Positions 3,001-61,398 of a DNA stretch of 64,000 nt are shown in pieces; position 1 is the stretch's first letter; the number at the start of each line of letters is the position of its first letter. The stretch is taken from the IMG/VR virus record IMGVR_UViG_3300028805_000065, positions 10,988 through 74,987 of that record. One strand, 5' to 3'. Source of the stretch: a virus. Taxonomy: Duplodnaviria; Heunggongvirae; Uroviricota; Caudoviricetes. Below the pieces are notes generated by a model. That model ran no database searches. It was not told where the DNA came from and saw only the letters and a list, made by a program, of their open reading frames with translations. The position numbers and the translations under genes were made by a program.

Positions 3001-3074
3001 ATAGAATGGCTAGGAATTCGGATGAATTAAAGCCTATAACAAAACAGGGGGATATGAATGAAAATGGTTATTAA
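1..3074 (+). CDS. dnaE: DNA polymerase III alpha subunit (5' end outside window)
   Basis: Frame is open from position 3 (FLYGIECYLTE, a PHP-domain motif). Also ATDTH, CRGSVGGS, DIDTD, SMHPAGIVV, KYDILGL and FGFNHS motifs of family C polymerases. Confidence 0.95.
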   Translation, partial: FLYGIECYLTETFDTNIRDNYHTILIAKNRDGFLELNELISKMTLESHRYYKPRLSFEEFFGISDNIIKISACLASPLWKFMHNIMKAEDDGEDVSDRKEVYYKLARHYDYYEIQYHNEHNQAKFNQLLYKMSKEFGKPLIAATDTHSLNQYKAECRMVLKYGKTDGEWGDNENELDLTYKTFDQLKEAFATQNSLPEEVYLEAIENTNVMADSCWDFEIDSTVKYPILYEGQDEEKIMLDRIDRMYKEKVALGIIDGNDARYLDNIKEEMRVFKKINMVGFMLFMSELMCWARGEGLFTSPCRGSVGGSTVAYITDIIDVDPVKMNTVFSRFANEYREEVGDIDTDWFEDDRPKIYQHMFERFGDRKCAYILAMGTLADKEVINTIGKAYRVMAEKGGYETKYTLDFIKDVKEEWSVDQESTRVKYPEIFKYYDGLAGCVVSQSMHPAGIVVAPLDIIPNYSVFYNKDGQQILPIDMDEVHECGLVKYDILGLKNVGIIAKTCRYANVPLPKSYSMDWTDQEVFKDMAENPTFIFQFESDYAHQTLSTYYKNKKAKGLDFTIDDLSIVNACIRPSGASYRDDLIALHMHKNPSPIIDKLLESTYGRLVFQEQTLAFLQQICGLSGGDADNVRRAIGRKQVDRLNAALPQILDGYCSKSNEPREVAESEAKEFLQIIEDSASYQFGFNHSTGYSMLGYLCGYYRHYYPLEFCTAALNCSKSDVDIQDGDKLVETLGFKIKYPKFRYSRAEYYFDKNTGSIFKGVSSIKYCNATIGEELYALRDREFDNFTSFLITVSNESSINSKQMGILIKSGFLSEFGNVNKLTTIYNMFQKVYDKNKKAFKKQMKKDSVEKNGFTHELLKSFCLKETDKTYSQVDFYTMLCTVEKTVNFADVGIIEKVKNQIDCLGASDIHDKRYKNFACVTNIIEKQSPIVYLYAIANGNTIEVKIPRQKFNKQKLEIGDVIYIKTLKKKKRQAKNPETGKWQSIPNTTVWWVEDYRMARNSDELKPITKQGDMNENGY

Positions 3075-3246
3075 AAGAGAAATTGAGTTGTCAGAAGATG
3101 AGGTAAAAGATGCTATAAGACAATATTTAGACTATGAAGTAGAAAATAGCGATGATTTAGTTGTAAACCTTGAGTTCCTTGGTACACCAGGTGATGAAGA
3201 CTTTATATTCACCGCCGTATGCAATGAGGAATATGTAACACAATGA
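3058..3246 (+). CDS. hypothetical protein
   Basis: GGGGG RBS; overlaps both neighbours in operon fashion. Confidence 0.7.
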   Translation: MKMVIKREIELSEDEVKDAIRQYLDYEVENSDDLVVNLEFLGTPGDEDFIFTAVCNEEYVTQ

Positions 3247-3779
3247 TTAATAGACGTAAATATTCTGACAAAGAACTTATTAGAATTCTCTCAAAAGAGA
3301 ACATTATTATTCTTGTTGATTCACGAGAAAAAGCTAACAAACACATACTAGATGTCTTCGACAAAGAGGGCATCCAGTATCGTGTGACGACACTTGAGAG
3401 CGGAGATTATACTTTTGAGTTAAAAGCGATTCCAGAATTAGACATTTCACACAATATGGATTTTAGACAAGATGTAATGATTGAACGTAAGAATAGTCTT
3501 GATGAAATTAGTGGTAACTTTACAAGGGGGCGTGAAAGATTTAATGACGAATTCGGTCGGGCATGGGCAGTTAAGAAATATCTGCTAATTGAAGATGGTT
3601 CATATGAGAAAATTCTAAATCACGACTATAGAACAGACTACAATTCAAGTTCGTTCTTCGCTTCACTTCTATCGTTTGACGCACGATATAATTTGCATAT
3701 CTGTTTCGCCTCTAAAGAAACATCTGCAATTCTTATCTATAACATTTGCAAGTATGCACTTCGTGAGATTCTTAAATAA
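3243..3779 (+). CDS. ERCC4/XPF-domain nuclease
   Basis: VDSREK, LESGDY, IERKNSLDE and LLIED motifs. Confidence 0.9.
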   Translation: MINRRKYSDKELIRILSKENIIILVDSREKANKHILDVFDKEGIQYRVTTLESGDYTFELKAIPELDISHNMDFRQDVMIERKNSLDEISGNFTRGRERFNDEFGRAWAVKKYLLIEDGSYEKILNHDYRTDYNSSSFFASLLSFDARYNLHICFASKETSAILIYNICKYALREILK

Positions 3780-3796
3780 ATTTCAAACACAAAACG

Positions 3797-3811
3797 AGAA
3801 GATATATATAG
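3797..3811 (+). promoter_or_regulatory. putative phage promoter motif AGAAG-W(0-2)-TATATA
   Basis: Intergenic AGAAGATATATATAG; related copies at 8615, 9569 and 14737, each upstream of a gene start. Confidence 0.4.
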
Positions 3812-3823
3812 AGGGTTAATTAC

Positions 3824-3982
3824 ATGGGATATATTTTTAATCCAGTTCCGCCGCCACGTTGTGATAACGAGGCGGATAATGATTACCTGAACGCCATTGA
3901 TGATTATATCAATGAATTATGGTTACAAGAAAAATTTGAAAAAGCATTAGAAAAGGAGATGGAAAATGCCAGTCCACGATGA
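3824..3982 (+). CDS. small hypothetical protein (52 aa, MGYIFNPVPPP...)
   Basis: Read by hand; GAGGG RBS; fills the gap and overlaps the thg1 start. Confidence 0.6.
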   Translation: MGYIFNPVPPPRCDNEADNDYLNAIDDYINELWLQEKFEKALEKEMENASPR

Positions 3983-4796
3983 ATTAGGCAAGCGAATGAA
4001 AGCCTATGAAGACGAGTCAAACAAAAAACTCGTAAAGAAACTGCCAGTAATCATTAGGATTGACGGCAGAGCATTTCACACGTTTACAAAAAAACTTGAA
4101 AAGCCATTTGATGACCTATTAATTGACACGATGCATGAGACAATGAGGTATCTTTGCAAACATGTTGCAGGATGTGTGCTTGGATATTGTCAATCTGATG
4201 AGATCAGTCTTCTTTTACAGGATTATAAAAACGAGGAGACTCAGCCGTGGTTTGAATATCGTTTAAACAAACTTTGTTCAGTTACAGCATCAATGGCAAC
4301 ATTTGCCTTTAACCGTGCGTTCGAAAACAATGTTATGGAGTTCCACGATTTATGTTTAGAGAATAGGACGTTTGAGGAAAATGAAGAACGCATTAAAAAC
4401 CTACTTGAATGTGCTGATAAAGGTGCAATGTTTGACGCTAGAGCATTTACACTCCCCTTTAATGAAGTAACAAATTATTTCTACTGGCGTGAGGCTGATG
4501 CAATTCGTAACTCTATTGAGATGGTTGGTCATGCGAACTTTTCGCAAAACCAGTTGCATAAAGTAAACACAGATGGCATTAAGAAGATGTTGTGGTTTGA
4601 AAAAGGTATCGATTACGATAAAACCCCCATTTATAAACAAAGGGGAGCGTGTTGTATTAAAACAAAGATGCCGTCGTTTTCCCCAGACAATACACCAGTA
4701 ATGAGAACTGTTTGGGTAACAGATATTGGCATCCCGATTTTTAAAGGTGATGGTCGTGAATACATTGAATCGAAGATAGGAGATACATACTATTGA
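3966..4796 (+). CDS. thg1: tRNA(His) guanylyltransferase Thg1-like 3'-5' polymerase (TLP)
   Basis: RMKAYE, IRIDGRAFHTFT, QSDEISL, FDARAF, YFYWR..DAIRNS motifs. Confidence 0.93.
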   Translation: MPVHDELGKRMKAYEDESNKKLVKKLPVIIRIDGRAFHTFTKKLEKPFDDLLIDTMHETMRYLCKHVAGCVLGYCQSDEISLLLQDYKNEETQPWFEYRLNKLCSVTASMATFAFNRAFENNVMEFHDLCLENRTFEENEERIKNLLECADKGAMFDARAFTLPFNEVTNYFYWREADAIRNSIEMVGHANFSQNQLHKVNTDGIKKMLWFEKGIDYDKTPIYKQRGACCIKTKMPSFSPDNTPVMRTVWVTDIGIPIFKGDGREYIESKIGDTYY

Positions 4797-5905
4797 TTTA
4801 CATGGATAATGCGGCAATGATGAAGCCGACTGAGGGAGTAATTAATTCCGTTACATTAGCAATGAATGAGTATTGGTACAATCCATCCAGTGCTTATAAA
4901 TATGGCAGAGAGGTTAAAGACGATATCGAATGGGCGAGACGCAATGTTGCAAATGTAATTGGCGCAGATCCGTCCGAAATTCACTTTACTAGTGGAGCAA
5001 CAGAAAGTGCAAACATTCTTTTGGATTCTCTTGTCCCGTGTTGTGAAGTGTATATTACTGCAATTGAACATCCATGTATTGCAAATGCAGAATGTGATGT
5101 TGGAATTCTGCCAGTAGACAAATATGGGAGTATTTACCCGTCAGAACTCCCATTATTTAGGGATGAGTATTTAGAAACAACCCTTTTAGTTATTGGCGCT
5201 AATAATGAAATAGGTACAATACAACCACTTGATTATATTGGCAATACCATTTGTAAAGCAAGGGGATTTCTATTTGGTTCTGATTTGACACAGGCGTTTG
5301 GTCATATTCCGATTAATGTAAAAGATTTGAACATGTCTTTCGCATTTGGTTCTGGTCAAAAGATTGGCGGATTAAGCGGATGTGGATGGTTGTATGTCGC
5401 AAAAGAACATGAAGATTTGATATCTCCGCTTCTTGTCGGTGGCGGTCAAGATATGTTTAAGGGTGGTACTGAAAACATTACAGGCATAATTGCACTCGGA
5501 GAAGCAAGCGCAGAGGTAATAGAAAACCTTGATGAAACAATTAAATATGAGACTGAACTTAGGGATTATATGATTAATAGAATTCTATCTGAAATCCCGG
5601 ATACAATTCTTATCGGTCACCCAACAAACAGACTCCCCAACAATGTAAACATTGGATTTGGTGGATGTGATAGCGAGAGCATTGTACAGTATCTTGACAT
5701 GTATGATATCTGTTGCTCGGCTGGTAGTGCTTGCCATACAAAGAGTGTTGAGCCATCGACTGTACTTAGGGCGTTAAGACTGCCCAGTAAATACATAAAC
5801 GGATCTGTAAGATTTAGTCTTTCAAAAGACAACACAAAAGAAGAAGTAGATGAGGTTATAGGAGTTTTAAAACAATTTTATGCCAGTAAAGACAAAGACT
5901 TATGA
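4793..5905 (+). CDS. iscS: cysteine desulfurase (IscS/NifS family, PLP-dependent)
   Basis: YMDNAA, NPSS, FTSGATES, NNEIGTIQP, SGQK (PLP lysine), GTEN, SAGSAC (catalytic Cys). Confidence 0.93.
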   Translation: MIYMDNAAMMKPTEGVINSVTLAMNEYWYNPSSAYKYGREVKDDIEWARRNVANVIGADPSEIHFTSGATESANILLDSLVPCCEVYITAIEHPCIANAECDVGILPVDKYGSIYPSELPLFRDEYLETTLLVIGANNEIGTIQPLDYIGNTICKARGFLFGSDLTQAFGHIPINVKDLNMSFAFGSGQKIGGLSGCGWLYVAKEHEDLISPLLVGGGQDMFKGGTENITGIIALGEASAEVIENLDETIKYETELRDYMINRILSEIPDTILIGHPTNRLPNNVNIGFGGCDSESIVQYLDMYDICCSAGSACHTKSVEPSTVLRALRLPSKYINGSVRFSLSKDNTKEEVDEVIGVLKQFYASKDKDL

Positions 5906-6002
5906 TGAAGCGTATTTGTACGTGTATAACGAAGAAACAGGAAAGTTTGAATTAGTAGGAAAGGTAACTGAGGTTGGAGAATATGACGGTGAACAAGAGT
6001 GA
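5880..6002 (+). CDS. possible small hypothetical protein (40 aa)
   Basis: Read by hand (MPVKTKTYDEAYLYVY...); bridges iscS and the next gene. Confidence 0.35.
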   Translation: MPVKTKTYDEAYLYVYNEETGKFELVGKVTEVGEYDGEQE

Positions 6003-6366
6003 TAAAGAGGTTTTGATTAGGTCACAAGACGGAAGAGTATATCGTAAGTTTGACTTTCCGCTTGAAGTAATAAGCCCAGAAGATTGGAATGTAAATATAG
6101 AGAATCCACGAGAAAAGAGGCGTGGCTTTGTTTTGGTTATGGGATATACGACACCTATTGCAGAGTACGAAGAGGAAAGACATGCAATTCATGTCATGAA
6201 TTATCTTCTTGCGAAGCGTAATTATTATATGTTTGACGCACCATCTAAAATCAAAAGTATCATTCTCAATGTACCAACAGATGAAATAGTTAAACAAACG
6301 CCTGAAGAAAATCTGCTTAATGAAATGCCAACAAACGGAGTAACAAGTAATGAAGTTGATAACTAA
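5983..6366 (+). CDS. hypothetical protein
   Basis: GGAGA RBS before the ATG at 5983. Confidence 0.7.
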   Translation: MTVNKSDKEVLIRSQDGRVYRKFDFPLEVISPEDWNVNIENPREKRRGFVLVMGYTTPIAEYEEERHAIHVMNYLLAKRNYYMFDAPSKIKSIILNVPTDEIVKQTPEENLLNEMPTNGVTSNEVDN

Positions 6367-6970
6367 ATTTAATCGGTTCATTGATGATTGGAGGGCGGTA
6401 AAAAACCATTGTCGCACAACAGACAATAAAGACTTTACCGATAAAGATGCAACAGATGTTTTTAAAAAGAAATTGCTTATTTCTGAACATAGTCCAATTA
6501 GATTGCTTGAATTTGATTGGTCGTGGAAAGGGATTGCTTATTGGGTAAGCACTGAATGGTCACGCCATAAGTTCGAAAAGTTTATTAGTACACAAAGAGA
6601 CGATAGATTAAAAGACGATATTCCAAGGGGTAAAAAACCACAAGATGCACCAGTGAATTATGATGGTTATGCCAATATGCAAAACCTCATAGACGCATGG
6701 AGAAAAAGGCTTTGTTATCAAGCAACGAAAGAAGCTAGAACGCTTGGGGAAGATTTTAAAATTACACTTCATGATACACACCCTTATGAATCCGACATCC
6801 TAGTCCCTAATTGTGTTTATAGGTGCGGTTGCCCTGAGTTTTATCCATGTGGTTATTTTAAAATGTTTAAAGATTATTTTCTAACACACCATCCAGATAA
6901 AGATTTTCACGATATTCAGACAAGATACGACGTTTATAACGAAATGTTTTATGAGGGTATTGAGCAATGA
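6350..6970 (+). CDS. thyX: FAD-dependent thymidylate synthase ThyX-like protein (divergent)
   Basis: SEHSPIR, STEWSRH...STQR.DR and RLCYQA..E.R motifs typical of phage Thy1 proteins. Confidence 0.75.
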   Translation: MKLITKFNRFIDDWRAVKNHCRTTDNKDFTDKDATDVFKKKLLISEHSPIRLLEFDWSWKGIAYWVSTEWSRHKFEKFISTQRDDRLKDDIPRGKKPQDAPVNYDGYANMQNLIDAWRKRLCYQATKEARTLGEDFKITLHDTHPYESDILVPNCVYRCGCPEFYPCGYFKMFKDYFLTHHPDKDFHDIQTRYDVYNEMFYEGIEQ

Positions 6971-7152
6971 TGAAATGGGAAGACTACAGAAAGGGTGAGA
7001 ATGTTGATTTACATGTAACATATGCAAAAGCTGGCATTGAATGTCCCGAATGTGGTGAAGAAATTTATGAAGACATGTCTGTTGAATATCTATCAAATCC
7101 ACCGCAACATGACTTCTACTGTTTTAAATGTGGGTGGCATGGACGAAAATGA
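6967..7152 (+). CDS. small Zn-ribbon protein
   Basis: CPECG...CFKCG. Confidence 0.7.
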   Translation: MMKWEDYRKGENVDLHVTYAKAGIECPECGEEIYEDMSVEYLSNPPQHDFYCFKCGWHGRK

Positions 7153-10830: not shown

Positions 10831-11052
10831 ATGATTATATTATATAGTACTGGATGTCCCAAGTGTAACATACTTGAGAGAAGATTAACAAACGACAATA
10901 TTGAATTTGAAATAAGCAATGATATTGACAAACTGATAGATATGGGATTTCAGAATGCCCCTGTTTTACAAATCAACGACCAGTTTATTGTATTTGAAGA
11001 TGCAATGAAAAGGCTTAAAGCGTATGAGGCTGGAAAGGGTACACTTGAATGA
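10831..11052 (+). CDS. glutaredoxin/NrdH-like redoxin
   Basis: YSTGCPKC (CxxC) and APVL; immediately upstream of nrdD. Confidence 0.88.
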   Translation: MIILYSTGCPKCNILERRLTNDNIEFEISNDIDKLIDMGFQNAPVLQINDQFIVFEDAMKRLKAYEAGKGTLE

Positions 11053-48300: not shown

Positions 48301-48549
48301 AATAAACTTGAAATCTTTAATCTTATTCCAGTCTTTATATTCAACGCCATCGACAACCTTGTACACATCAAAGGACAACTCAGCAACGTCTGACAAAGGA
48401 TGTGTAATATTAATACTTCTTACGTTTTGAATTGCGCCAATCTTATTTCCGCCTCTTGACGACAGTACAAGAGTGGGTTCAATTGGCTGACCGTCAGCAC
48501 CGATTTCTATTAAACTATTGTTTAATGATTTCAAAACATCTAAGTTCAT
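45301..48549 (-). CDS. Tal-like tail protein (baseplate hub)
   Basis: Follows Dit. N-terminal LSFDVYK / WF...V.LDE pattern, central coiled coil, GI.AD.VIG.L segment. Confidence 0.75.
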   Translation of the reverse strand: MNLDVLKSLNNSLIEIGADGQPIEPTLVLSSRGGNKIGAIQNVRSINITHPLSDVAELSFDVYKVVDGVEYKDWNKIKDFKFIQIPYNNTWFEAKVTLDEEDDIVKHVTCVHANEAELGQLNLYEVEINTDADIERDDYEETFFYDEDNPKASLLHRVLSDKAPHYQIYHVDDSLKGLWRQFSFNGTSIQDALNQIAEEVGCLFVYGEWAENDGKYHRTISAYDLEDYCNECGKRGNYSEHVCTNCGSTNITYGYGEDTGIFISRENLATSINYESNTDNLKNCFRLVAGDDVMTAAIKSCNPSMSQYIWYFSDDMLDDMSDELRQKVTEYQQLVSDYQTTRNMSVARVHVDNYNSLVRKYSAYSDELYEIEYPIVGTSKLTEAYYDGVNLYGFIKSELMPTSEKVDSTTAFEQLEILQSDGNLDEVGISSVSGTIPYTSANSAIQSYAKVFIDTSRYKITVFTHDITGTQWSGEITIQSYTDDEDKATDDFVITLFDSTSNDKYAEWLNQSVQKAMANREVTDLSVVKLFNSDETLQSFETRIQGYSLDYLSIMDSMATSAITILTEQGVANEDSVNTDIYTQLYKPYLDKSRAIQAEIAVKERELSYLQRPTDDEGNTDPRYPELGLLDVIVIVQNDLSKLLDMQTYLGDELWTELSFYRREDEYQNSNYISDGLTDGEIIEQAQRFVESANKEIIKASTLQHTISAPLIDFLIMPEFIKLQRKFKTGNWIHLEVDGNVYKLRLTNWTIDFDSIEDLDVEFSDVIRVGGSISDIASILSKSRSMATTYDYTAKQAIKGKDANETIKIYKDYGIDFRKIKAITSKGNTNIVYDDDGILLKRVDGTETLPEQARIYNNGIYITKDAWETVSTGLGHYSYVDPETGETVETYGIIADTVIGKLILGENLKIYSESGKFEMGNDGLKITAVDGDDNTDLFVIQKEKTDEQGRPYVEKYIYVDSNGDVQIAGDSITIGGLPIIEYIDDAIDEAEIDVSLPITIQIDSSAGVIFKNKNISTILTATVYKGGEDITSEVTEFKWTKKNSDGTIDTSWSRYTTSNTITINTDDVMSKAIFGCEVTIQQ

Positions 48550-49358
48550 ACGATCACCACCTTTGCGTATGGTGAGTACCTGATTTCATATGTGATTGAA
48601 AGGTTCGTGTGCAATACATTTGCCACAGAACCAAACATATTGTTTACCCTGTAATATACATAATTAAAATCATCTGCAATCTTATGAGATGCTAATGAAG
48701 ACGAAATCTGTTGGTTTTTATCTATTGTGATAACCTCATTTGCCTTACAGTTTTTAATAACTGTTTCCCTTTCGTCATTATTCTTTAAAGTCAAATCACC
48801 GTTTTCATTGACAGTTATTGTTATGTCTGGATAAATCCATCCAATCTCGTCCGATGTGCAGTTGTATTCTAATGATTCGTTTGCATTTAAACTTCCGCTG
48901 AGTACGACATCTTCCTTATATCCGAATGGTGCATCGCATTCAAATTTTAAACTTGCCCCCACACGACCATCGCCAAGTACATATTCCTCAACATTAAAAC
49001 TGCCCATCCAATAAATACCATTATATTCATTGCCGACAACAGTCAACTTGTGAGGGGAGTGCCTGACAAGCCATCTTTTTAAATACGCCATATCGCTCAA
49101 CGTGATTGTGTAAGACTCCTTTGACATGCTTTGTCTTCCATTAACACATATATTTTTTGCAATATGGAACTCCATCTCAAGCGGATCTTCATAAACAGAA
49201 GTGATGTATGGCTGACGCTTTCCACCCATCATGGGCGCATGATTGTACGAAAGCTGTGAGTCAGTATCAATTTCTCCACCTTTAGAACCATCAAATGAGA
49301 CAATCATATAGCCCAAATCACTGAGTCTCAATCCATCATAAATAAAATCTGTAACCAT
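48546..49358 (-). CDS. distal tail protein (Dit)
   Basis: DFIYDG.RLSDLG, YED.LE.EF.I, RWL, F.CDAPFGY, YPD..I; follows TMP. Confidence 0.85.
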   Translation of the reverse strand: MVTDFIYDGLRLSDLGYMIVSFDGSKGGEIDTDSQLSYNHAPMMGGKRQPYITSVYEDPLEMEFHIAKNICVNGRQSMSKESYTITLSDMAYLKRWLVRHSPHKLTVVGNEYNGIYWMGSFNVEEYVLGDGRVGASLKFECDAPFGYKEDVVLSGSLNANESLEYNCTSDEIGWIYPDITITVNENGDLTLKNNDERETVIKNCKANEVITIDKNQQISSSLASHKIADDFNYVYYRVNNMFGSVANVLHTNLSITYEIRYSPYAKVVIV

Positions 49359-49375
49359 AACTCACCCCCTATATA

Positions 49376-49588
49376 TTATTCATCGAGATCTAATTCTTTA
49401 TCTTTAACAAGTCCATCTCGTATTTCTTTTATTTCTTGTAAAAATAATTTAGCCTCTCGTATTAGTCCATCTAATTGTTCATGTTTTGCTTTAAGCAGTT
49501 CAAGCGACTCGTTATATTCTTTTGCCAACTCGTCAACTTGACCTATGTCTTTGTTCTTTTTCTTCTTTTTATCTTTATCTTTAGCCAT
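49376..49588 (-). CDS. small Lys-rich coiled-coil protein
   Basis: AAAGGA RBS before the ATG at 49588 (MAKDKDKKKKK...). Confidence 0.55.
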   Translation of the reverse strand: MAKDKDKKKKKNKDIGQVDELAKEYNESLELLKAKHEQLDGLIREAKLFLQEIKEIRDGLVKDKELDLDE

Positions 49589-49634
49589 CCTTTTTCTCCA
49601 AATAAATAGACTGGCAGATTTCTCTGCCAGCCAT

Positions 49635-52075
49635 TTAAACTCTAATCGCATTTTTTGCCAGTGAACCATGTCCATTAACACGACCCAATGTCATTTCCTG
49701 AATAAGCTTTTCAAATCTCTTGTCCTTACGAAGTGCATCCATAAACTCGGACGGGCTTCTAAGACCACTAAGATTGAATTCAAGATTTACATTGTTACCA
49801 CTTCCATATGTATTATTAACGCCAAGCCCCCTCAGGAACTTCTGAGGATTGTTGGCGAAATCCCACATGTTTTGCGTGGCGTTATTATTTAAAACAGTAT
49901 CGTTTGTATTGAGGCGTGTAAGGATAGCACCATCAGACTTTCTTATAATAGTCTCAGGCGCTCCCTCGTTTGTCCAATACATTCCATTGGACGGTACAGA
50001 CCTTACGCCACTCTTATAACCTTTCCATTTACCATTTGCGTCAAATGTAAGCCAACCTCTGTTGGTCTTCTTCTTCCCATTGACAACTCTTGTACCGTCA
50101 GCACCAACATAATAGTCGCCCTTAACTGGTTTGGTAGTTATCGCACCATTATGTATCCACTGAGATACAACTCTTTTATTGGTTTTGGGGTCAAAGAAAA
50201 ACCATTTTCCAGAATCTGTCTTAAGCCAACCACTCGCGGCTTTGCCATTAGCGCCAAAATGATATAATCCGTCACCAACTTGTCTCCAAGTATTTTTAAC
50301 CATAGCGCCACTATTGGTATCAAAATAATATTTTGAACCATTTACGGTTTGAAGTCCTTTTTTGTTAACGCCATTACTATCAAAATAGAATTGTTTGTCG
50401 TTAATGGTTTGTATGCCAGTTAACGCTTCTCCGTTCTTATTAAAACGATACAAGTTGCCACCAATACTTCTCCAAGCATTAGTAGCCCTTGAGCCGTCTT
50501 TATCCAAATAGTATTTCTTGCTACCAACGTTAACCCACTGAGAACCACTCATCATTTGACCATTGGCAAAACGATAGTACTTACCACCATTATTTACCCA
50601 ACCAGTAAAAGATGTGTCGAGAGTACCGTCATCTTTAAAATACCCGGTCTTTGTTTTACCGTTACTATCGGTATATGTCTGCATATGACCAGTGCTTCTT
50701 ACCTTTTCAGCCATGATGTTGGCTTGTGCTTTTTGGTCGGCATTTTTCTGCGCAGAAGAGTAGTAGTCGGTGATCAGTTTTACACCGTCCGCAATGCCAG
50801 TTACGCTTTCAACAAATTTGCCATTAACAAAATAAGATGCCAAATCCTTGACAGCAGAAGAGTCAAACATATTTGATGTAGCTTCTGTCATAATATATCC
50901 AACATCATTAGATGCGGTTTTAATAGCATCGACAATCGTTGAAGAATTTACATTAACTCCATCTACTACTGCTTGAATAAGTGCGTCAACATCGTCAAGT
51001 CTTGCGTTAAGAATATTTTCATATTCTTCCTGTAAATCAGACAATAACTTCTTCGTCTGAGACATACGACGTTCTTCCTCGGTTTGTGCTAAAGTGTCTT
51101 GCGCATTCTTCAGGTCGTTTCTCAACTTCTGTCTACGTGACGCACCCTCTTCAGTATCATCGTTTGCATATGCATTTAACTGCTTCTGTATTTTGTTTAC
51201 ATTATTTTGCGCATCTGCGACTTTCTTTGCGTAATCAATTTCATCTTTTTGGGCATCCATCAAATCGGTATATTTAGATATAAGATCCTTTAATGAATCA
51301 ATCTGTTTCTTAATACCATTCTCAACCAAATCGACAATAGACTCTTTATAGTTATTAGCGTCCTCAATCGACTGTCTTTGAGACTCATATAACTCTTGCC
51401 GTCTTTCTATTAAATCTTGGTTGTAAGGATCTTTTGCAAGTTCTTGATTTATCTTTTTGATTTCAGACGCATACTTTTGAGCCTCTTGCATTGCCACGTT
51501 GTACTGCGCAGACAGAATTCCAAACCCGGCTACACCATTACTTGTAACAACGCCTTTCTCGTCATACATCTTGTCCTCATCACCAAGAAGACCATACAAG
51601 AATTCCAATTCGTCCCGTACATTAGAAATAGTTTCAGCGCCTCTATCAAAGATTTCCCAATTCGTCTCACGGATAGACTTATTGAGTTCCTCAATATTCG
51701 CAGTTGTCTCTACAATGCTTTCGCTAATATCGTTTAATGTACTGAGCATTTCATAGTAGCCCTCAGAATTAATCTTGATTTTGCCACTAGCAACCGCCTT
51801 GTCCATTATGGTTTTAAGGCTATTGTACTCAGTTTTCAACTTAGATATCTTTTTCTTTTCTTCGTCAATCTGACGGAGTCTTAACTTATTGGCGGATATT
51901 CTCCCAGTGTTTTCAGCAAGACTTATATAATTGTCAAGTTGGTCATATAAATGTTGATATTGCGCAATCTGATTTTCATAATTTGTTTGATTGAGTTCAA
52001 ACCTCTGATTCCACAAATCAGCTTCATCGGCTTTTAACTTATATACTGCATCACGAGCATCGAGAGCAGCCTCAT
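49635..52075 (-). CDS. tape measure protein, exon 2 (coiled coil + cell-wall-binding repeats)
   Basis: Joins exon 1 in frame as AAG TGG T|AT GAG GCT (KWYEAALD); 6298+2441 = 8739 nt = 2912 aa + stop. Confidence 0.9.
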
Positions 52076-53405
52076 CATTTATATTTTGTCAGTTCGCTAC
52101 GCCGACAGGGTAGTAGTACCCCTCATGTTTTCACATGAGATTAGACTATATCTTTAGGTTTAATTCTTTTATTTTATTGCTAATAATCTCCTTTACATTA
52201 TGTCCATCCCAATATGGGATTCTTAAAATATTTATATTGTTTTGTTTACAATACTCATTTTTAATTTTATCATGCGCAATAGTTATATCATGTGTTGGGA
52301 ACACTTCATAAAAATGATTTTGTCCGTCAAACTCTATAACCAAATTATAATCTTTAATATAAAAATCAAATGGAAGTGGCTTTTTGTCTCTACAATCTTT
52401 GAATCTTTTTTCTGGCTCATAAGAAATACGAAGTTCATCTAATGCTTTTCTTACCTCAATTTCGCCAGAACTTTCTATAGCAACACAAGTAGGGCATCTT
52501 CTTACACCAGCCTTTTTGTAGTTAATATAACTTGTAGTAAAATGTTTTCCACATTTACATCTTATTTTCAGACACCTATCTGTACAATTTGTATACTCAT
52601 TTTCATTACACCATACATTACCATCGTCGGATATCGTTTGTTTGATTATACTTTTATCTATTCTACTGTAATCTCTATTTTTATAAGACTCTACTAAACA
52701 ATCATGACCACGTATAAAATTATCTAACCAAACTTGCGTTACTACACTCGGTGTTTTGATCGTTATATACATACAAACAGTAGTAAGTTCATCTTTTGGT
52801 GTGATTAATTCGTATCCCCTTTTATTACATTCTGCAATTGCCAAGCTATAATTTCTTTCTATTCTAATGTATGCATTTTTAATATTCACCTTTTGGGAAG
52901 CACAGTGTTTACATGCATTTAATTCACCTTTATTAATTGCATTTTTAATAACACAGTATGACGATTCATATTCCTCTCCACAATAATCACACACTGCCCT
53001 CACCTTTGTTTTACTTGTGTCAAATAAATCACATGCCTTGACATAAAAATCATCATTAGCTTTAGTAAAAATATATCCAAGTGCTTCATAATGTTTTCTA
53101 GTATTACCATTCCATTTTACTTTAACCAGTTGTTCTTTATTAAACATATTTTTGCGCAATAAAATAAGCATGGTTTCCCATGCTTTAAATTAAACCTATT
53201 CACCTTTTCGAATTGCCAATCGCTTGCAATTCTACTCCCTTACGGGATAGTCGTTGAGCGTTCCCCTATTCGGGGCTTCGTTGCTGATTGCCACATAACA
53301 TATAATTTTCAAACATTCACGTATAGGTATATTTCATCCTTGCGTTGTAGTTTATATGTCTTCGCAGTTTTCCAGCATTTAAATGAATTGAGTGGCGTGA
53401 ATTCC
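52076..53405 (-). mobile_element. group I intron (IA2-like) with homing endonuclease in L8
   Basis: P1 with U.G at the 5' splice site; P3 AUUCAUUU/AGGUGAAU; P4 UGCUGG/UCAGCA; P7 GACUAU/AUAGUC; P7.1, P7.2, 12-bp P8, P9 GAAA hairpin; terminal G. Confidence 0.93.
52146..53171 (-). CDS. intron-encoded endonuclease (Zn-ribbon repeats + DUF559/Vsr-like PD-(D/E)xK domain)
   Basis: CDYCG, CKHC, CKCG and CPTC knuckles; SSGE..V, LPFDFY, IEFDG.NH, DKIKN.YC, LRIPYW. True start may be the ATG at 53147. Confidence 0.88.
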   Translation of the reverse strand: MLILLRKNMFNKEQLVKVKWNGNTRKHYEALGYIFTKANDDFYVKACDLFDTSKTKVRAVCDYCGEEYESSYCVIKNAINKGELNACKHCASQKVNIKNAYIRIERNYSLAIAECNKRGYELITPKDELTTVCMYITIKTPSVVTQVWLDNFIRGHDCLVESYKNRDYSRIDKSIIKQTISDDGNVWCNENEYTNCTDRCLKIRCKCGKHFTTSYINYKKAGVRRCPTCVAIESSGEIEVRKALDELRISYEPEKRFKDCRDKKPLPFDFYIKDYNLVIEFDGQNHFYEVFPTHDITIAHDKIKNEYCKQNNINILRIPYWDGHNVKEIISNKIKELNLKI

Positions 53406-56400
53406 ACCACTTTCTATATTCTTCAATCTTTTTCCAAGTATCTTCATTCTTGATATCTTGAATATCAATCTCGCCCTTACGAACCTTTGCGGCGAGTTTT
53501 GAATCAAGCCCGACTTTATTAGCTTGTTTAATATAGCGATTATATGCACGTTCTTGTTCTTTGATTTCAGTTCCAACAACATAAAGACTCTTTGATAAAG
53601 CGTCGCTTCTTGTTGTTAGATTGTTAAATACATTAGACGCAACGGTGTCAAAATTAGAAATCATGCGGTCTAAGCGGTCAATGCGGATTTCGATCTTATC
53701 GAGCGTTTCTTTAAAATCTTTAGCTTCATTATTAGCCTTACTAGCGTTTCCGCCACCGCCACCGTTATCATTTCCGCCACCGCCACCGCCACCACTTGAT
53801 GATTTAGATGAAGATGTGGCTTTCTTAAATCTTCCGCCACCAATTGCCGTTGCATGTGCACTTCCCTTAATAGTCCCGTTTGCAAAAGAATTACCAAAAA
53901 CATTGGCATAATTATTAGTCCAACCCTTTGACAGAAGTTCTTTTGTCTGTTGGGCATTAAAGATTATATCGCCTTTTTTAAGTGGCGCACCCATCGTCGG
54001 TTTCCCACCATTGAAAATCATCCACGAATCTTCGGATGGTCTAACAACTATCTCAGCGCCAACTTCATTAATAAGTGCGTTTTCATCCTGTTTTAAACCA
54101 AACTTATTAAGCCCGTTTGCATGTGCAGTTCCACCAACATGTGACATGCCTCTAAACGCAGAGTTTGGCACAGTTCCTTTATAGGCTGGCGGTGATCCCA
54201 CAGTATTTATATAATATGTAATATATCTACTTCCACTGCTAGGCAAATCGTCAACGGCTGATGCACCGTAAACGTTGATATCATAATTGACATTTCTGTC
54301 AAAGTTTGGTGGATTATAATTATCAACCTCTGACGATTCCTTTCCATATGTTACCGTTAACTCTGGTATTTCTTTTGGTGTATATTCATCTACGGCGGTA
54401 CTATCTAATTTTGCTACAACATCTATCGGATTTGGTTCAGCGTCTACGTGTACAGTTTGGTCTGGTATTGTAACACTACTAGAATCAAAATCAGCCCTAA
54501 CAGTAGCACTTGTACTTAAGTCATTTGTAGGCTGTTGATATTGTACTGGTATTGTTACTGTTTGTTTTTCCAGCTTATCAACAATAGCGCTTGCATCGTC
54601 GTTAGCCTCAAAACCAAGAGATACTTTCATATCTTCGGGAAGATTGGCAATTTCCTCAGAAAGTTGTTGTACTTTCTCATCACCCTCGACTGACAAATCG
54701 ATACCGGGCTGTTCATTCATTTCTCCAATCGCCCTGATACGTTGCTGAAGTTCGTCCATCTTACTAAATCCAGCTGATAATGTATCAAAGTTTATTGGTA
54801 CTTCCGCAGTATCGCCAGTAAGTAAATCACGCTTTTTTTGAATCTCATCTATTAAATCACGAAATGCTTCATACGCCGCAGGGTTTACCTTTGGATCTGG
54901 AACATTTTCGCTTAACTCATTAAGTGCATCATCGCATTCTTGTACAGTATCTAAACCATTAACATCTAAGTTTATAGCAGAAGACACATCTAAATTCCCA
55001 ATCTTGCCCTCTTCGTTTGCAAGATTTTTTAATGTATCTTGTGCTTCTGTGGCTCTTTCATTTATTTCACTTAGCGCCTCGGCTGTTTCAGGGGATACAA
55101 AATGTATATCGAAACCATAATCGTTTAACTTTTTAAATGCCGCCTCAACTAAGTCAACACTCATACCAAGTTCATCGGCGAGTTCCTGTGTATCTATACC
55201 CTCTGAAAAATCATAATTACCTTGAGCATCTTTAGTAGCTAACTCTAAATCTACTAGCTTATCAGCAAATGCTACTGCACCCTTTTGCCCCTCTGTAAAG
55301 TATTTCTTAACAACACCAACGCCGTCCTCATATGCTTTGACGACATCATCAATAGATGCGGTTGACAAGTCTTCACCAGAATACAACTGTGCAAGCGCTC
55401 TAAACTCATTTGTGCCAACAAGCCCTTGGTCATATAATTCTTTACCACGTTTGAGAGCGGTATCAACAACGGTATCATACTGATCACCCATTTCTCCGCC
55501 CTTTTGAGCGTCGAGCCATTTTTGATAAGCGCTAGTAGCACCGTCATATGCTGTGGATAAAAGCTTTACATTCTGAAGCCTTGTCTTCCAAGCTTGAATT
55601 TCAGAAGCATTTCCGCTCTCAATAGCCTTATTAAGGTTCTCTTGAGCCTCTTGAATCCTTTTTTCAAACTCAGACTTCATTGTGCGCTCTTGTTCAGCCC
55701 TCATTTCACGAAGAGCCTTTGTGTTTACTATAATACCATCAGCTGTTCTTTCAAATAATCTTTCGGGATTATAAGACTCAAGATCCTTATATGCACTCAT
55801 GATAGTGGCAACATCGCCAGTTAGCGCACCAGTTTCTTTGTCAACACCCATGCTAAGACCACCACTAGCAAATGCGTTAACAAGTGCAGAGTTAACCTTA
55901 TCTATTGTTTCAATAGACTCAGAAGCGCTCTTCATAAAACCGTCAAAAGATTCTTTCGCTAAGTCAATACCATCGCCAGCACCACCAGCGACAACTTCAA
56001 GTTGTGAAAGAAAATCAGCAAAACTTCTAACTGAATCTTCTGTAAAATCAAAATTTGGATCGTATATTTTTGCTAATGCAGATAAATCTTCAAAACCTAC
56101 TCCACCGTTCAACAGAATATTCTGTACATCAACACCATCTAAACCAAGAGCCTTTACATTATTAACAGCTGAGAATATTTCAGACTGATACTTAGCTAAA
56201 TCATTTGATGATTCGGCAATTCCATCTTTAATGATATCGCTAAACTGATAAACTCTTTCTGTTGTTTTTTCTACGCTATTTGCAACTTCATCAAAGAAAT
56301 CCCCATACTCAGCATGAGCGTCTGTTATTTCTTTTACAGTTCCTTTATATTCATCAAGCTGAACTTTGGCTTCATTGATTTTCTCCGCATCACCGCTAAA

Positions 56401-59400
56401 GAGAGCATCGTTATATGCTTGCGCTCTCTCTGCATATTCCATTAATTCATCGCCAAAACCATCTGCATATAATTTTTGTTCCATGTATGCACGATAGTTT
56501 TCCTTATACTCATCCACTATCTTCTTATTGGCATCAAACTGTTTTTGAGCATTATTTATAGCTGTCTGAATTAGACTTTGATCAGAATCATCAACAGTTT
56601 TTTTGAGATCTTCTAATTCATCCATCACCCTATTAATTTCTGATTCAAACTGTGATGCGTCACCTCTAAATACAAATGTGCCATATTGGTTTTTCCAGAA
56701 TTCATTGTCAAATATTTTGTTATATGCCTTTTGAGCCGATTCAGAAAGTTCAAAAGTTTGACCCTCGCCAGTATCAAAATTAGGGTCTTCTATCTTATAA
56801 GTGCGAGTCTTTTGCATCTCGCTCCTTGCTTTTTCGTATCCTTGATAGTTTTCCCTAATATTGCGTTTTGCTTCTTCAGCCGAAATATTTGTTAATAATC
56901 CAAGTTGCGTTTCAAGACTACCGTTAACCAAATCGATTTTGCCAGCTTGTTCACCATATTTAGAATTAATCTCATTTTGCAAGTCAAGCAACTGTTGTTT
57001 AATGCTGATTCGTTGAGATTCCGTAATATTTGCGTTGTTAAGTTGTTCGTTTAATTCGGCATAACGTTCTTTATATTGTTCTATTTCTCCCTTGCCACTA
57101 TTCCAAGAGGTGGTTGCGTTAGAGGTATTACGTTGTATTTCCTCTTGACGACCTTTCCAAATTTTATATAAAGCAAAAGCACCTGCTATACCAGCACCAA
57201 TGCCAAGCGTAAGCGGACTAATATTTGATAAAAGCCCAATAAAAGCATTACTAGCTCCCTCTGCTCCAATAGATACTTCTTCCCAAAGCATACTAAAAGC
57301 AATCTTTAAATCGCCAACATTTTTGATTGTTCTAGGACTAAACAAAGAAAAAGCATCGCCAATATCACTTAAATTTGTAATGCCACTTTTAATTATGCTA
57401 AATGTTTTAGCAATACCAAGACCAGTTATGGCAGTACCAAGAACACCGATATGCTTTACAAGCCCGTCAATTATTTTTATAATCGTTGTTCCAGCGTCAA
57501 CAATACCTTTTATAAAACCAGAGCCAAGTACATCGGCAGATAATTCTTGAAATGCGACATGGAACTTATCAAGACTAGCTTGAATAGACTGATTGTAGAC
57601 TTCAAGCTGTTGATCCATAGAGCCAACACTTTCTGTTGTTGCACCCTTTATAGTATCTTCAACGATATCCCAGTTCTGAAGAGCGGCGGCTAAAACGTTA
57701 GCTCCTCTTTTGCCAGCCAAAAGTTCAAGTAAGTTAGCTTGGTCAATGTCTTCCATCTTGTCATAAACTTGAGCCAACTCTCTGACAATCTGCGTTGTGC
57801 TTTTAAATGTTTTCTCATCAGCCTCTAATATATCCACGCCACTAAGAGCCATAACCTGAGAGCGAAGTTTAGATACAGATTCAACCATTCCACTGGTGTC
57901 TTCACCAGCCTCTTCAAGTTCTGTCTTAGCGCCCCTAATTCTCATTGAGATTGTACGCCATGCATTACCAGCAGATGCCGCATCTTGCGTAACCGAAGTT
58001 GTAGCCGTAATAAGACCGATTGTTTCCTCTAATGAGTTATTAGCCTCTGACATAGCGGCTGAAGATCTTTCAAGACCGTTAATAATTCCAATCGCATCAA
58101 TAGGCTCAGTATCTGCGACATAGTTAATCATATCGCCGACTCTTTTGGCTTCATCTGCGGCAAGACCAAATCCTCTAATAGTTGCTTGCAGACCCTCGGT
58201 AGCAGTATCAACATTCAATCCACTACCGACCTGTGCCAGTTCCGCCGTTACATCGGATAATGTAGTTGCGTCTTTTAATTCGTACCCAAGCCTCGTCCAA
58301 CTTGCGGTAGATTCAATTATACCGTCTATAGTTTGTCCATATTTAGACGCACTGTCTGCGGCTTGGTCGAAATAATTCGTAATCTCAGAAGCGCTTGCCG
58401 TACTAACTTTTCTAAGTTCAGTCATCGCAGTATCTATTTTGATGACTTCTTGCGCCATTTCACGAGGTAATTGTCTTATCTGACTAGTAAGCGCATAAAT
58501 TCCAGTAAATTCACCAATATGTACGAACGCCTTTTTAATCTGATCTCCAAGTGTTAATCCACCAAGACCAGCCGCAGTGATTTCAGCTTTTAAATTCTTA
58601 AACTGATTTACATAACCGTTCAATTCACCTTGCGTCTGAGCATTTCTCATTTTATTGGCAAGGTCTGTCAGCTGATCGCCATACTGCTTGAGTGCCTTTG
58701 AATTGTTCCTTGCCCAAGTTTCAACTTGATTTGCATTCCTTGCGCCAACGCCCTCTGCCAACATTTTTTGGGTATTGGCTCTAACCTCTGTCATAGCGTT
58801 GTTGTAAGTTTTTAGTGATACTTCGGCTTGCTTATAAGCATCAGCTAACTGTTGCCCCTGTAACGCCCCCTGTTGATTTGGGTTGGCAAGGGAGTTTGAA
58901 ATCTCTTGCGTAATCCTATAATATTCCGCAGCCGCATCGGATGCCTTTTTTACCAAATCGGAACTGACGCTATTACTGATTCCCATCAGTCCTTGTTCCA
59001 TTTTGGATATGTTTGCGTCAAATGTACCAGTAATAAAAGATTGGCTGACCCTATCTAATTCTTGTCCAAGCTTCTGTGCCTCTTGTTGCGCTTGCTTAGT
59101 GCCAGCCGTAAAATCAGTAAGATACTGGATATTGGTTTTCCACTCGCCACCTTCTACTCCAAGAAAGTTACCTTGTTTGTCTGTTTTAGCGACCGCCTCT
59201 TTCCACTTACTGGTAAGTGTTACCAGCGTCCCCATATCATTTATTGCCTTGGCAACAAAACTTGTCCCCGTTTCATTAAACTTAATACTCTGAATTTGCA
59301 GACCTTTTTGTTTAATACTGTCCAACTCTTTCTCTAAAGTTTTAAAAACAGCACTACTCGCACCAAGTTCTTTAAGCCCGGAGTTCCCGAAAATCGATAA

Positions 59401-59703
59401 AGTTAAAGAGCCTTTGCCATTTTTTGCACTTACTCTATCAACTATGCCTTTAAGCATATTATTGGCGACTTTTGTTGTATCTATGGCAGCAATATTTTTT
59501 TCAAAACCTTGTGCATACTGTCGCCCCGCTTGAGAGCCAATAGATTGTGCTTGCTTTTGTAAATTGCCCCAAACTGCATTAAACCCACTTGCGTCAACCG
59601 TTATTTTTATCGGTTGTTCCATTGACTTCTTAAATGTTTCGAAGTCTTGTTTAGCTTTACTTAGGTCGGCTATGCCAGTAATTTTGGCTTCAAATTCAGC
59701 CAT
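53406..59703 (-). CDS. tape measure protein, exon 1
   Basis: TP901-type core (MTELRKV...A..YG..ID....S.ASW.RLG), long helical composition, position before Dit. Confidence 0.93.
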
Positions 59704-59749: not shown

Positions 59750-60160
59750 TTAAATCTTTTTAAAATATTTACCAAAGGTATTTGGTATAATTTCGTATTC
59801 AATATCCATCATTGTGTCCCACCAAAAATGTGGGTTACCTAACATATGGCTAGGCGGATAACCAGTTTCCGCATTCTCAATAACCATCATCGTATCATAT
59901 GTACCCGTTGTATAATTGACATCGTCATTTATTTCAATCATACCAATACCGCCAGTTGCTGTCGGTTGAAAATGTGGGGCAGATGCACTAGACCCAAGTT
60001 GCCCGGTTCTATTATATAATACTGGTTCTGGTGACTCATAAAATCTATCTAAATACTTTGAAAGTCTTATAAGAGATAATTCTTGCGCTTCTTGCGTAGC
60101 AAGACGAACCTTATCTATGACTCCTTTTTCAAGACTTGCCCAATCTGTATAAACCATCAA
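59750..60160 (-). CDS. hypothetical tail-module protein
   Basis: P..Y.RTGQL motif; located between MTP and TMP. Confidence 0.7.
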   Translation of the reverse strand: MMVYTDWASLEKGVIDKVRLATQEAQELSLIRLSKYLDRFYESPEPVLYNRTGQLGSSASAPHFQPTATGGIGMIEINDDVNYTTGTYDTMMVIENAETGYPPSHMLGNPHFWWDTMMDIEYEIIPNTFGKYFKKI

Positions 60161-60873
60161 CCATCACTTTCTTTCTTAAAAGCAAGAACGTTCCTTGCAT
60201 TATAATCCTTTTCAAGTTCCTCGTTTCGTTTCTTAAGTTCTTCGATTTGTTTATTCTTTGCATCGATAATTTCCTGAGAAGCCTTGTCAACATCAAATTT
60301 CGCCGCATCCTTAATAACTTTAGCAAGATTCTTTTCAGTTAATTCAAAATCACTAGACTTTATTTTATCTATAATTTCCTTTGATGCCTCAATATCTTCT
60401 TTACTAATATTACCTAAATCAAGTTTTACAAGATTACCAAGCGCAATATCTAAATCATTAATAAAATTGCCAAACTCATTTATTCTTGCTGTAATATCTC
60501 CAATGTTTTTCGCAATTGTTTCAAGAGCATCTGCGCCGTGAATCATTCTTTGCTTTTTATAATCAACAACTTCCTTGACGTTTTCCCTAATAATATTCAT
60601 TATCTTCGCTTGCTCAGAAAAACGCTCATCGCCATAAAACCTATTAATAAGCTTCTTTACATCCTCAAGTTCACAAATTACAAACAGAGAATCGCCATCT
60701 TCAAACTCTATACCATCTATAAAATATTGAACAATAGCCATTCTCTCTGCAAATCTCTGATAATATGGACTATACGTTCCACCAATAAAACATGCGTTTG
60801 AAATATATTCAATAACCTCTGCGATAGTATCAGGAGCAATATTTTCTTTAATATTCAGTTCTGTAATCTTCAT
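60157..60873 (-). CDS. hypothetical tail-module protein (possible chaperone)
   Basis: AAAGGA RBS; helical, coiled-coil C-terminus. Confidence 0.7.
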   Translation of the reverse strand: MKITELNIKENIAPDTIAEVIEYISNACFIGGTYSPYYQRFAERMAIVQYFIDGIEFEDGDSLFVICELEDVKKLINRFYGDERFSEQAKIMNIIRENVKEVVDYKKQRMIHGADALETIAKNIGDITARINEFGNFINDLDIALGNLVKLDLGNISKEDIEASKEIIDKIKSSDFELTEKNLAKVIKDAAKFDVDKASQEIIDAKNKQIEELKKRNEELEKDYNARNVLAFKKESDG

Positions 60874-60915
60874 ATCCTTTTCCTCTCTTTCTTTATGCGC
60901 ATTTCTCGCATTAAT

Positions 60916-61398
60916 TCATTTTATGCAGAACGCCTCGCATATATTAATTGCGTCCGCCTCATCGTCACTTATATCTAATTTATACTTCTGTAAAACATGA
61001 TTAACTGAATCAGCTTTTACTTTCTTTCTATTCGAATTCTTTATTCCAACTAACTTACGCCAAGTAGCACAAGCCATCTCTGTGTAATTTATATTATTTG
61101 ATAAACAGTAATAAAATACTGCACCTATAATCCTAGATAATTTTCTTGTAGTGTCAGCATTTCTTGTAGACGGCATTTGTTCAATAACTACATCATCTGG
61201 GGATTTATCAAATATCAAAGTAGTAATTGAAAAACACATTTTCTTTATTCTGTCTTCAGCATTTTTATTTTTGCTTAAATCTATTACTCCGCTTTCAGCG
61301 TATTTACCGTTAACAAACAACGCCCATCCAGTTTTATTTGATGATGTATCAAGCGCTAACACTTTCCATTTTTTCTTTTTAGCCATAATATTTACCAT
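60916..61398 (-). CDS. RuvC-like Holliday junction resolvase
   Basis: VLALDTSS.KTGW, VVIEQ, W...VG, K...K, DDEADAI (RuvC acidic tetrad). Start may be 61386. Confidence 0.88.
   Translation of the reverse strand: MVNIMAKKKKWKVLALDTSSNKTGWALFVNGKYAESGVIDLSKNKNAEDRIKKMCFSITTLIFDKSPDDVVIEQMPSTRNADTTRKLSRIIGAVFYYCLSNNINYTEMACATWRKLVGIKNSNRKKVKADSVNHVLQKYKLDISDDEADAINICEAFCIK

Follow-up and report, generated by a model that had tools for sequence, protein, structure and literature searches.

The 64,000-nt window analysed here (positions 10,988 to 74,987 of IMG/VR virus record IMGVR_UViG_3300028805_000065, a 138,987-bp record with an estimated completeness of 92%) belongs to an uncultured gut phage and carries on its minus strand a tape-measure protein (TMP) gene whose reading frame is interrupted by an insert with an endonuclease gene of its own. 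An ORF scan of this strand showed three ORFs, of 2128 aa (53317..59703), 341 aa (52146..53171) and 793 aa (49635..52016); the first-pass annotation, made from the letters of the window, had listed the first as a protein with a junk tail and the last as an orphan, and had proposed that both are parts of one tape-measure gene with C-terminal wall-binding repeats, split by a complete group IA2 intron with a homing endonuclease. The gene assignment was borne out, as the 2128-aa ORF was identified as a TMP by PF10145 (73.9 bits against a cut-off of 33.2; 2.1e-20) and phrog_4211 (3.1e-67), and the frame downstream of the insert, when read from 52073, holds a conserved helical region together with matches to PF19127 (8.1e-22), PF01473 and PF19085, i.e., choline- or cell-wall-binding repeats. 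The genomic context, which is syntenic with that of related loci (L002-L009), also fits a tape-measure gene, with tail chaperone-like genes on one side and genes of the distal tail or baseplate on the other.

The ends of the insert could be placed to the nucleotide. Exon 1 ends in AAGUGGU at 53406, an internal guide GCCACU follows 10-15 nt into the intron, the intron's last G lies at 52076 and exon 2 begins with AUGAGG from 52075, so that the letters and coordinates given in the first-pass annotation for the exon end, the guide, the U.G pair and the terminal G all stand. Ligation of 53406 to 52075 in silico gave an open frame of 2912 aa that reads KIEEYRKW/YEAALDARD across the junction (slash), as had been proposed, with AGAAAGTGGTATGAGGCTGC as the ligated-junction 20-mer in the mRNA sense. 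The insertion separates the first base of a Tyr codon from the other two, within a conserved W-Y-E-x-A-L motif that belongs to the most conserved stretch of its region of the TMP. Uninterrupted homologues agreed with this frame: exon 2 had 444 matches when compared with longer proteins, and more than 100 of those listed (2000-3600 aa, metagenomic, uninterrupted) span the junction; exon 2 is covered over 100% of its length by longer uninterrupted TMPs, no indel occurs at the junction in about 45 aligned uninterrupted TMPs, and the four closest of them (P0004 at 93%, P0006, P0005 and P0010) carry an identical WKKIEEYRKWYEAALDARD at this place. Intron-less alleles in relatives, the check that had been suggested for the proposal, were found in three loci, L004, L002 and L003, whose DNA runs colinear with the ligated exons, without a single gap, for 118-120 nt (92.5% identity for L004 and 81% for L002 and L003) and all of which read AAGTGGTATGA(G/A)GC where the ligated exons read AAGTGGT/ATGAGGC. 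As a U is required before the 5′ splice site and a G before the 3′ splice site, only the boundaries 53406/52076 yield the TAT (Tyr) codon that the intron-less alleles have. The coordinates of the exons, the ribozyme parts and the endonuclease gene are collected in Table 1.

Table 1. Features of the interrupted tape-measure gene, listed 5′ to 3′ along the transcript (positions are those of the window)
Feature	Position	Strand	Basis and remarks
TMP exon 1	53406..59703	-	2099 codons and base 1 of the Tyr codon; PF10145, phrog_4211; colinear with uninterrupted TMPs
Group I intron, complete, 1330 nt	52076..53405	-	From G1 (53405) to the terminal G (52076); Rfam partial matches, exact excision, covariation
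P1 hairpin	53391..53412	-	Exon AGUGGU (53411-53406) with guide GCCACU (53396-53391), U.G at the 5′ splice site
P1 loop UUCA	within 53391..53412	-	Able to pair with UGAG of exon 2 (P10)
Ribozyme 5′ half	53188..53388	-	Rfam alignment, RNAalifold, pair counts per helix
P3, 5′ and 3′ strands	53388-53381 and 53205-53198	-	
P4	53377-53372 / 53287-53282	-	
P5, extended	53367-53291	-	
In-frame stop for unspliced read-through	53317..53319	-	Inside the P5 extension
P6	53280-53259	-	
P7 5′ strand	53252-53248	-	GACUA
P7.1	53247-53236	-	
P7.2	53232-53210	-	
P8 5′ strand	53197-53188	-	
Conserved hairpin AAGCAUGG-GAAA-CCAUGCUU, then U-rich tract	53156..53185	-	In the P8 loop, just upstream of the start of the endonuclease gene
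Homing-endonuclease gene, 333 aa	52146..53147	-	Conserved Met start; 341 aa if counted from the ATG upstream, at 53171
Ribozyme 3′ half	52076..52165	-	Rfam model positions 219-251; pair counts
P8 3′ strand	52165-52156	-	Followed by J8/7 AAAGAUA
P7 3′ strand	52148-52144	-	UAGUC
P9	52139-52122	-	
P9.1	52121-52108	-	
P9.2	52107-52087	-	
Terminal G	52076	-	
TMP exon 2	49635..52075	-	813 codons, counting the split Tyr; a coiled region that is conserved, choline-binding/cell-wall-binding repeats, C-terminal domain

Left unspliced, the TMP frame runs 29 codons into the intron, with a tail that begins WNSRHSIH, before it meets the stop at 53319-53317; read-through tails of 25-29 aa that end at a comparable place are also encoded by the orthologous loci L006, L008, L009 and L029. 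Given that the unspliced 2128-aa product would lack 813 conserved residues, splicing is, judging from the sequence, very probably obligatory for tail formation. The further suggestion of the first-pass annotation that splicing efficiency could gate virion assembly is speculation. We also considered other kinds of intervening element at these junctions, namely an intein, a group II intron or an assembly chimera. Nothing besides the interruption itself speaks for any of them and this explanation is effectively refuted, since stop codons interrupt the insert when it is read in the frame of the TMP, which excludes an intein, neither Rfam nor Pfam gave a reverse transcriptase or group II match, and the junctions are reproduced by independent contigs.

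The RNA structure of the insert was analysed with Rfam and by covariation. When the 1.7-kb region around the intron was scanned, the group I intron model RF00028 matched in two pieces, one at 53389-53198 (model positions 48-158, 30.3 bits, E 2.2e-5), which covers P3 to P7 and the 3′ strand of P3, and one at 52156-52124 (model positions 219-251, 23.4 bits, E 2.4e-3), which covers J8/7, the 3′ strand of P7 and P9; the strings GACUA ... AAGAUAUAGUC of the core match the consensus. The match falls into two pieces because an insert of about 60 nt in P5, P7.1/P7.2 and the 1-kb ORF in P8 interrupt the model. A search with RF00028 across the whole 139-kb genome gave nothing at E<=0.01. For covariation, eight related introns were aligned (alignment A1), and the structure was composed of the helices predicted by RNAalifold and a canonical, Rfam-guided P3. 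The results showed that the 81 pairs of the 17 helices are formed in 98.0% of cells, compared with 34-41% when the partners are slid by 1-3 columns, and that double (compensatory) changes are found at 32 of the 81 pairs, the observed value being reached in 0 of 500 shuffles. Pair support extends from P3 to P9.2 and includes P7.1 (UCCC-GUAA-GGGA; double changes at 3 of 4 pairs) and P7.2 (GAAUUGC/GCAAUUC; 5 of 7), with further double changes in P8 (3 of 9), P9.2 (4 of 6) and, several of them, in the P5 extensions. P7 is invariant in this alignment, and the core formed by P7, J8/7 and J6/7 both matches the consensus and is invariant in the eight relatives. P8 is a long-range stem, AGGUUUAAUU/AAUUAAACCU, that encloses the ORF and can be extended to about 12 bp; P9 reads CUCAUGU-GAAA-ACAUGAG. 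Thus the 12-bp P8 of the first-pass annotation and its P3, P4, P7, P7.1, P7.2 and P9 were all recovered. P1 forms a hairpin of 7-8 bp with -10 to -11.5 kcal/mol in six of six orthologues, and its pairing is also retained by a compensatory change in the related locus L037, where exon GGUGGU faces guide GCCACC in place of AGUGGU and GCCACU in the window. In the ORF-deleted alignment RNAalifold had instead paired CAUUUA of the P3 5′ strand with the 3′-terminal UAAAUG, a helix for which we substituted the Rfam-guided P3; that P3 is 98% paired and its changes are consistent. The rejected pairing (53381-53387 with 52076-52081, minus strand) can form in eight of eight sequences; it may be due to chance, or may be an alternative to P3 that rivals it until the 3′ splice site comes into use.

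These structural data bear directly on a reading in which the gene lies in pieces that are never spliced, a free-standing endonuclease gene having split the TMP into cooperating polypeptides of 2128 and about 793 aa. The ORF track by itself does give three ORFs, and a functional phage ribonucleotide reductase split by a homing endonuclease is known from work cited in PMC10448857. The endonuclease gene is flanked, however, by a group I core supported by covariation whose boundaries coincide exactly with the exon ends; the 793-aa ORF starts at a TTG that lies 20 codons inside conserved exon 2 and has no visible Shine-Dalgarno-like sequence upstream of it; and the exon 1 product would bear a non-conserved 29-aa tail. 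We therefore regard unspliced gene pieces as very improbable.

The ORF enclosed by P8 was analysed next to the ribozyme as the candidate homing-endonuclease gene (HEG). Its start is most consistent with the second Met, at 53147 (M9), which is nearly invariant in 42 homologues and gives a product of 333 aa; the proposal of an intron-encoded homing endonuclease was upheld by fold and homologues, while the start at 53171 in the ORF track gives way to the conserved one. The stop codon UAG overlaps the 3′ strand of P7, and a 1-nt difference in L006, L009 and L029 shifts the stop two codons downstream. The HEG is present as a single copy in the source genome. It matched phrog_559, 9084 and 7140 in PHROGs, where phrog_559 is labelled HNH, and had 1131 homologues in the metagenome protein collection and relatives with 26-32% identity in 431 GenBank phage records, mostly of phages of Firmicutes. 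Pfam gave weak matches to DUF5889, DUF2726 and RAP on the C-terminal part, and a search of the sequence against the PDB returned no match even at E<=10. An AlphaFold model (pLDDT 90.4) found its best structural match in the catalytic domain of I-Bth0305I (3r3p_A; Z 12.3, rmsd 2.9 Å, 94/97 residues, 22% identity), followed by Vsr (1cw0, Z 11.6) and a DUF559-type protein (3hrl, Z 11.1), with other PD-(D/E)xK structures at about 8 or less; these Z-scores are from VIA-align, and Foldseek with the whole model placed I-Bth0305I and Vsr at probability 1.0, yet returned nothing at E<=0.001. Residues E280, D282, H286, H300, D301 and K304 are invariant in the 42 homologues. The N-terminal 225 aa contain four invariant Cys pairs (CxxC) and gave only weak Pfam matches (HypA-like zinc ribbon; DUF723/DUF4379 in relatives). 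When the N-terminal 224 aa were folded alone and compared with 48,161 chains the best Z was only 4.0, and the fold of this part was therefore left without assignment. With regard to the HNH label, no Pfam HNH match at E<=1 and no HNH structure among the fold matches were found, an absence that is not proof, and the one nuclease domain that could be recognised is Vsr-like. All six loci have an intact ORF, with dN/dS of 0.06-0.15. Given the Vsr-like fold, the invariant residues and an intact ORF with low dN/dS, we read the HEG product as a homing endonuclease, predicted to be active, that belongs to the Vsr-like (EDxHD-type) family and has another kind of DNA-binding part. The prototype of the EDxHD family, I-Bth0305I, is encoded in P5 of a recA intron and has N-terminal NUMOD/HTH modules (Taylor et al., 2011, PMC3239194; PDB 3R3P). 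Both it and the HEG product of the window are phage endonucleases encoded in introns, with a Vsr-like catalytic domain at the C-terminus, but I-Bth0305I differs in these NUMOD/HTH modules, whose place is taken in the window by cysteine-pair (zinc-ribbon-like) modules. Databases call members of the HEG family ‘HNH endonuclease’ (PHROGs and RefSeq, e.g., in Lactococcus phages phiL47 and WRP3) or ‘intron-encoded protein B’ (in a Staphylococcus phage). The phiL47 relative was rejected as a further case of a TMP intron, as it is free-standing or intron-associated beside ribonucleotide-reductase genes and not in the TMP.

The same intron and HEG are present at the same codon in five independent contigs, four of which are ENA metagenome contigs (L006-L009) and one of which is from IMG/VR (L029). 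Between the window and the other intron-bearing loci, identity is 84-97% for the ribozyme halves, 68-79% for the HEG and 60-71% for the flanking exons. The closest TMP relative found is the intron-less L004 (a Logan contig of SRR17889449, with the TMP at 17-7015), which is 93% identical in amino acids over 300 residues around the junction and 92.5% in nucleotides over 120 nt; alleles with and without the intron thus coexist in the clade. Since L004 lacks the intron while more distant relatives, with exons about 71% identical, carry one, there has been gain or loss within the clade, and this points to a fairly recent gain in the lineage of the window or a loss in that of L004. Two relatives have minimal introns of the same ribozyme family without an ORF. 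The one in L122 (5508-5837, 330 nt) occupies the same site in a TMP that is only 32% identical, and the one in L037 (8227-8532, 306 nt) occupies a different TMP site and is about 75% identical to the core of the window intron, with the matching guide change. In L122 only 3 bp of P1 were seen and, because there is no convincing P1, the boundaries of that intron rest on the protein alignment only. Outside the clade, the ribozyme core aligns to unannotated gaps in phages of Streptococcus, Enterococcus, Bacillus and Serratia, and more than 116 IMG/VR contigs contain the 15-mer GCTCAACGACTATCC (P6-J6/7-P7); when the region was compared with GenBank phages by megablast, nothing matched. MT835469.1, the only TMP relative in GenBank phage records, was considered as a carrier of an insert at the same place and rejected: its TMP is one continuous ORF of 2722 aa, and therefore its extra distance reflects protein divergence and not an intron. 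The TMPs of relatives are interrupted at further places as well (L008:2761-4200, L122:3550-4961, L100:626-2037 and L037:8227-8532; L007:1-227, L009:1-434, L100:7493-8032 and L037:3010-4244). One such site lies at about residue 1913/1914 in the numbering of the window protein and holds a 340-aa HEG in L008 and the 306-nt ORF-less intron in L037, and another lies at about residues 570-665; exon 1 of the window is uninterrupted at both.

Several observations weigh against reading the insert as an active, mobile intron of a defined subgroup. Neither RF00028 piece reaches the gathering score of 50 bits, and Rfam run on the whole window with the gathering score and again with E<=0.1 returned nothing, so that the suggested check with the group I model produced two partial matches, both of them below 50 bits; the gathering score is a limit set by the curators and not a structural feature. 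The pairing of UUCA with UGAG as P10 is possible but weak, with 3-4 bp (a conserved UCA/UGA and one variable pair), the fourth of which L009 lacks. The window intron has P9.1 and P9.2 but no P2, a P2-like extra hairpin being present in the relative L122. Because of the missing P2, the subgroup proposed in the first-pass annotation is carried by the presence of P7.1/P7.2 only, and we call the intron IA2-like. Synonymous sites of the HEG are near saturation between orthologues (pS ~0.7), which indicates that the copies are old, and old vertical inheritance together with loss, rather than recent homing, may explain much of the distribution; vertical descent with occasional loss or transfer and homing are both compatible with the data. 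Splicing, GTP dependence and HEG cleavage are predicted for the window phage from its DNA. The low Rfam scores, and the origin of the window in a metagenome-derived record of incomplete length, would also suit a decaying, splicing-defective intron, with the TMP as a pseudogene of a defective or mis-assembled phage genome. This is highly unlikely, as the catalytic core keeps the consensus in P7, J8/7 and J6/7, the same architecture is found in five independent assemblies, the HEG is under strong purifying selection and both TMP exons are intact and conserved. Together, the data support the identification of the element as a mobile group I intron with IA2-like architecture, in which P7.1 and P7.2 lie between P7 and the 3′ strand of P3, P9.1/P9.2 are present and P2 is lacking. 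We are confident, with little room for doubt, that it functions as a group I intron with a HEG and that its removal, as predicted from the sequence, yields the 2912-aa TMP.

By analogy with other group I introns and with I-Bth0305I, the element would self-splice and its endonuclease would cleave DNA and promote homing. On this model, the ribozyme would fold in the late transcript and P1 would present the U.G pair at 53406; exogenous guanosine would attack the 5′ splice site, the terminal G (52076) would dock in the invariant P7 pocket, and the exons would be ligated to encode the 2912-aa TMP. Unspliced RNA would give only the 2128-aa protein without the conserved C-terminal 813 aa. The HEG product, expressed from the P8 loop, presumably cuts intron-less TMP alleles in co-infection, and repair would copy the intron in. 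The hairpin and U-rich tract in the P8 loop (Table 1) gave a terminator-like match, resemble an intrinsic terminator and are kept through compensatory changes in all orthologues, including L006 (4183-4210), L007, L008 and L009, with AAGCAUGG/CCAUGCUU, GAGACAUGG/CCAUGUCUU and AAGCACA/UGUGUCUU as variants of the stem. This hairpin could serve transcription termination, RNA stabilisation or control of HEG translation. It is also conceivable, if improbable, that the intron is no mere neutral parasite but a switch that governs timing or isoform in tail assembly, in which the P8-loop hairpin and the conserved in-frame stop make TMP output conditional. If so, transcription by a host-type RNA polymerase would end short of the HEG and exon 2, or else a defined short TMP of 2128 aa would be made from unspliced RNA, and the full 2912-aa TMP with its wall-binding repeats would need a terminator-insensitive phage polymerase as well as splicing.

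The IA2 introns of T4 in td, nrdB and nrdD share with the window intron P7.1/P7.2, an ORF looped out from a peripheral helix, a conserved coding site and an early in-frame stop, and the nrdB intron likewise lacks P2. They differ in that they interrupt nucleotide-metabolism genes, encode GIY-YIG or HNH endonucleases (I-TevI to I-TevIII) and carry their ORFs in P6 or P6a, not P8. The first-pass annotation had held that structural genes are less common hosts of phage introns, which is overstated for the TMP (PMC2504315, PMC10448857). In prophages of the Bacillus cereus group, TMP introns occupy three sites (TMP-IVS1 and IVS2 of subgroup IA2, TMP-IVS3 of IA1), their P1 guides are adapted to the different sites, alleles with and without introns coexist, and some introns lack a HEG (Tourasse and Kolsto, 2008, PMC2504315). 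These introns resemble the family of the window in an IA2 (in the window, IA2-like) architecture, in the use of several TMP sites and in a variation of guide and HEG such as we found in L037, L122, L008 and L100; they differ from it in phage lineage, TMP family and insertion sites, and the searches made detected no sequence relatedness between the window intron and those of the B. cereus group. In the Vibrio phage ICP1, the TMP transcript is composed of four exons with three introns between them, the middle one with a HEG, and its splicing to a full-length TMP was established by RNA-seq and RT-PCR in a study that calls the TMP a ‘frequently interrupted gene’ (Barth, Dunham and Seed, 2023, PMC10448857). 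As in the window, a TMP gene is here interrupted by intron(s) with a HEG, and positions 24-142 of the window core can be aligned, at 72.5%, with the stretch of ICP1 that separates the HEG embedded in its TMP (ORF80) from the piece of TMP that follows. Unlike the window, with its single intron and a Vsr-like HEG in the P8 loop, ICP1 has four exons split by three introns, its HEG is of the HNH-3 type and its host is Gram-negative; for the window phage, the choline-binding repeats in the TMP suggest a Firmicutes-type host. Introns in terminase, capsid, tail-tube and minor-tail genes have also been published.

Since TMP introns and their splicing are already in the literature, the novelty of the finding is low and it does not change current understanding. 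Its consequence is foremost one of annotation: the TMP of the window phage and of many gut-phage relatives has been mis-called as two or three genes, where the correct product is a single protein, of 2912 aa in the window, with wall-binding repeats in its C-terminal third. The TMP gene in this clade hosts introns at at least three sites, some with and some without a HEG, and the clade is thus a natural data set for the retargeting of group I introns through changes in P1 and the gain or loss of HEGs. The endonuclease, in turn, extends the little-studied Vsr-like (EDxHD-type) family by an architecture with a putative zinc-ribbon-type DNA-binding part that databases label ‘HNH’.

Around the TMP gene, the window (48546-49681 and 59750-61398) and L002-L009 have a gene order in common, which runs from a RuvC-like gene of 160 aa through two small genes, of about 231-238 and 134-136 aa, to the TMP gene, followed by a 68-101-aa gene, a 270-aa DUF6558 gene and a gene for a protein of about 1080-1110 aa. 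The two small genes upstream of the TMP gene are candidates for tail-assembly chaperones.

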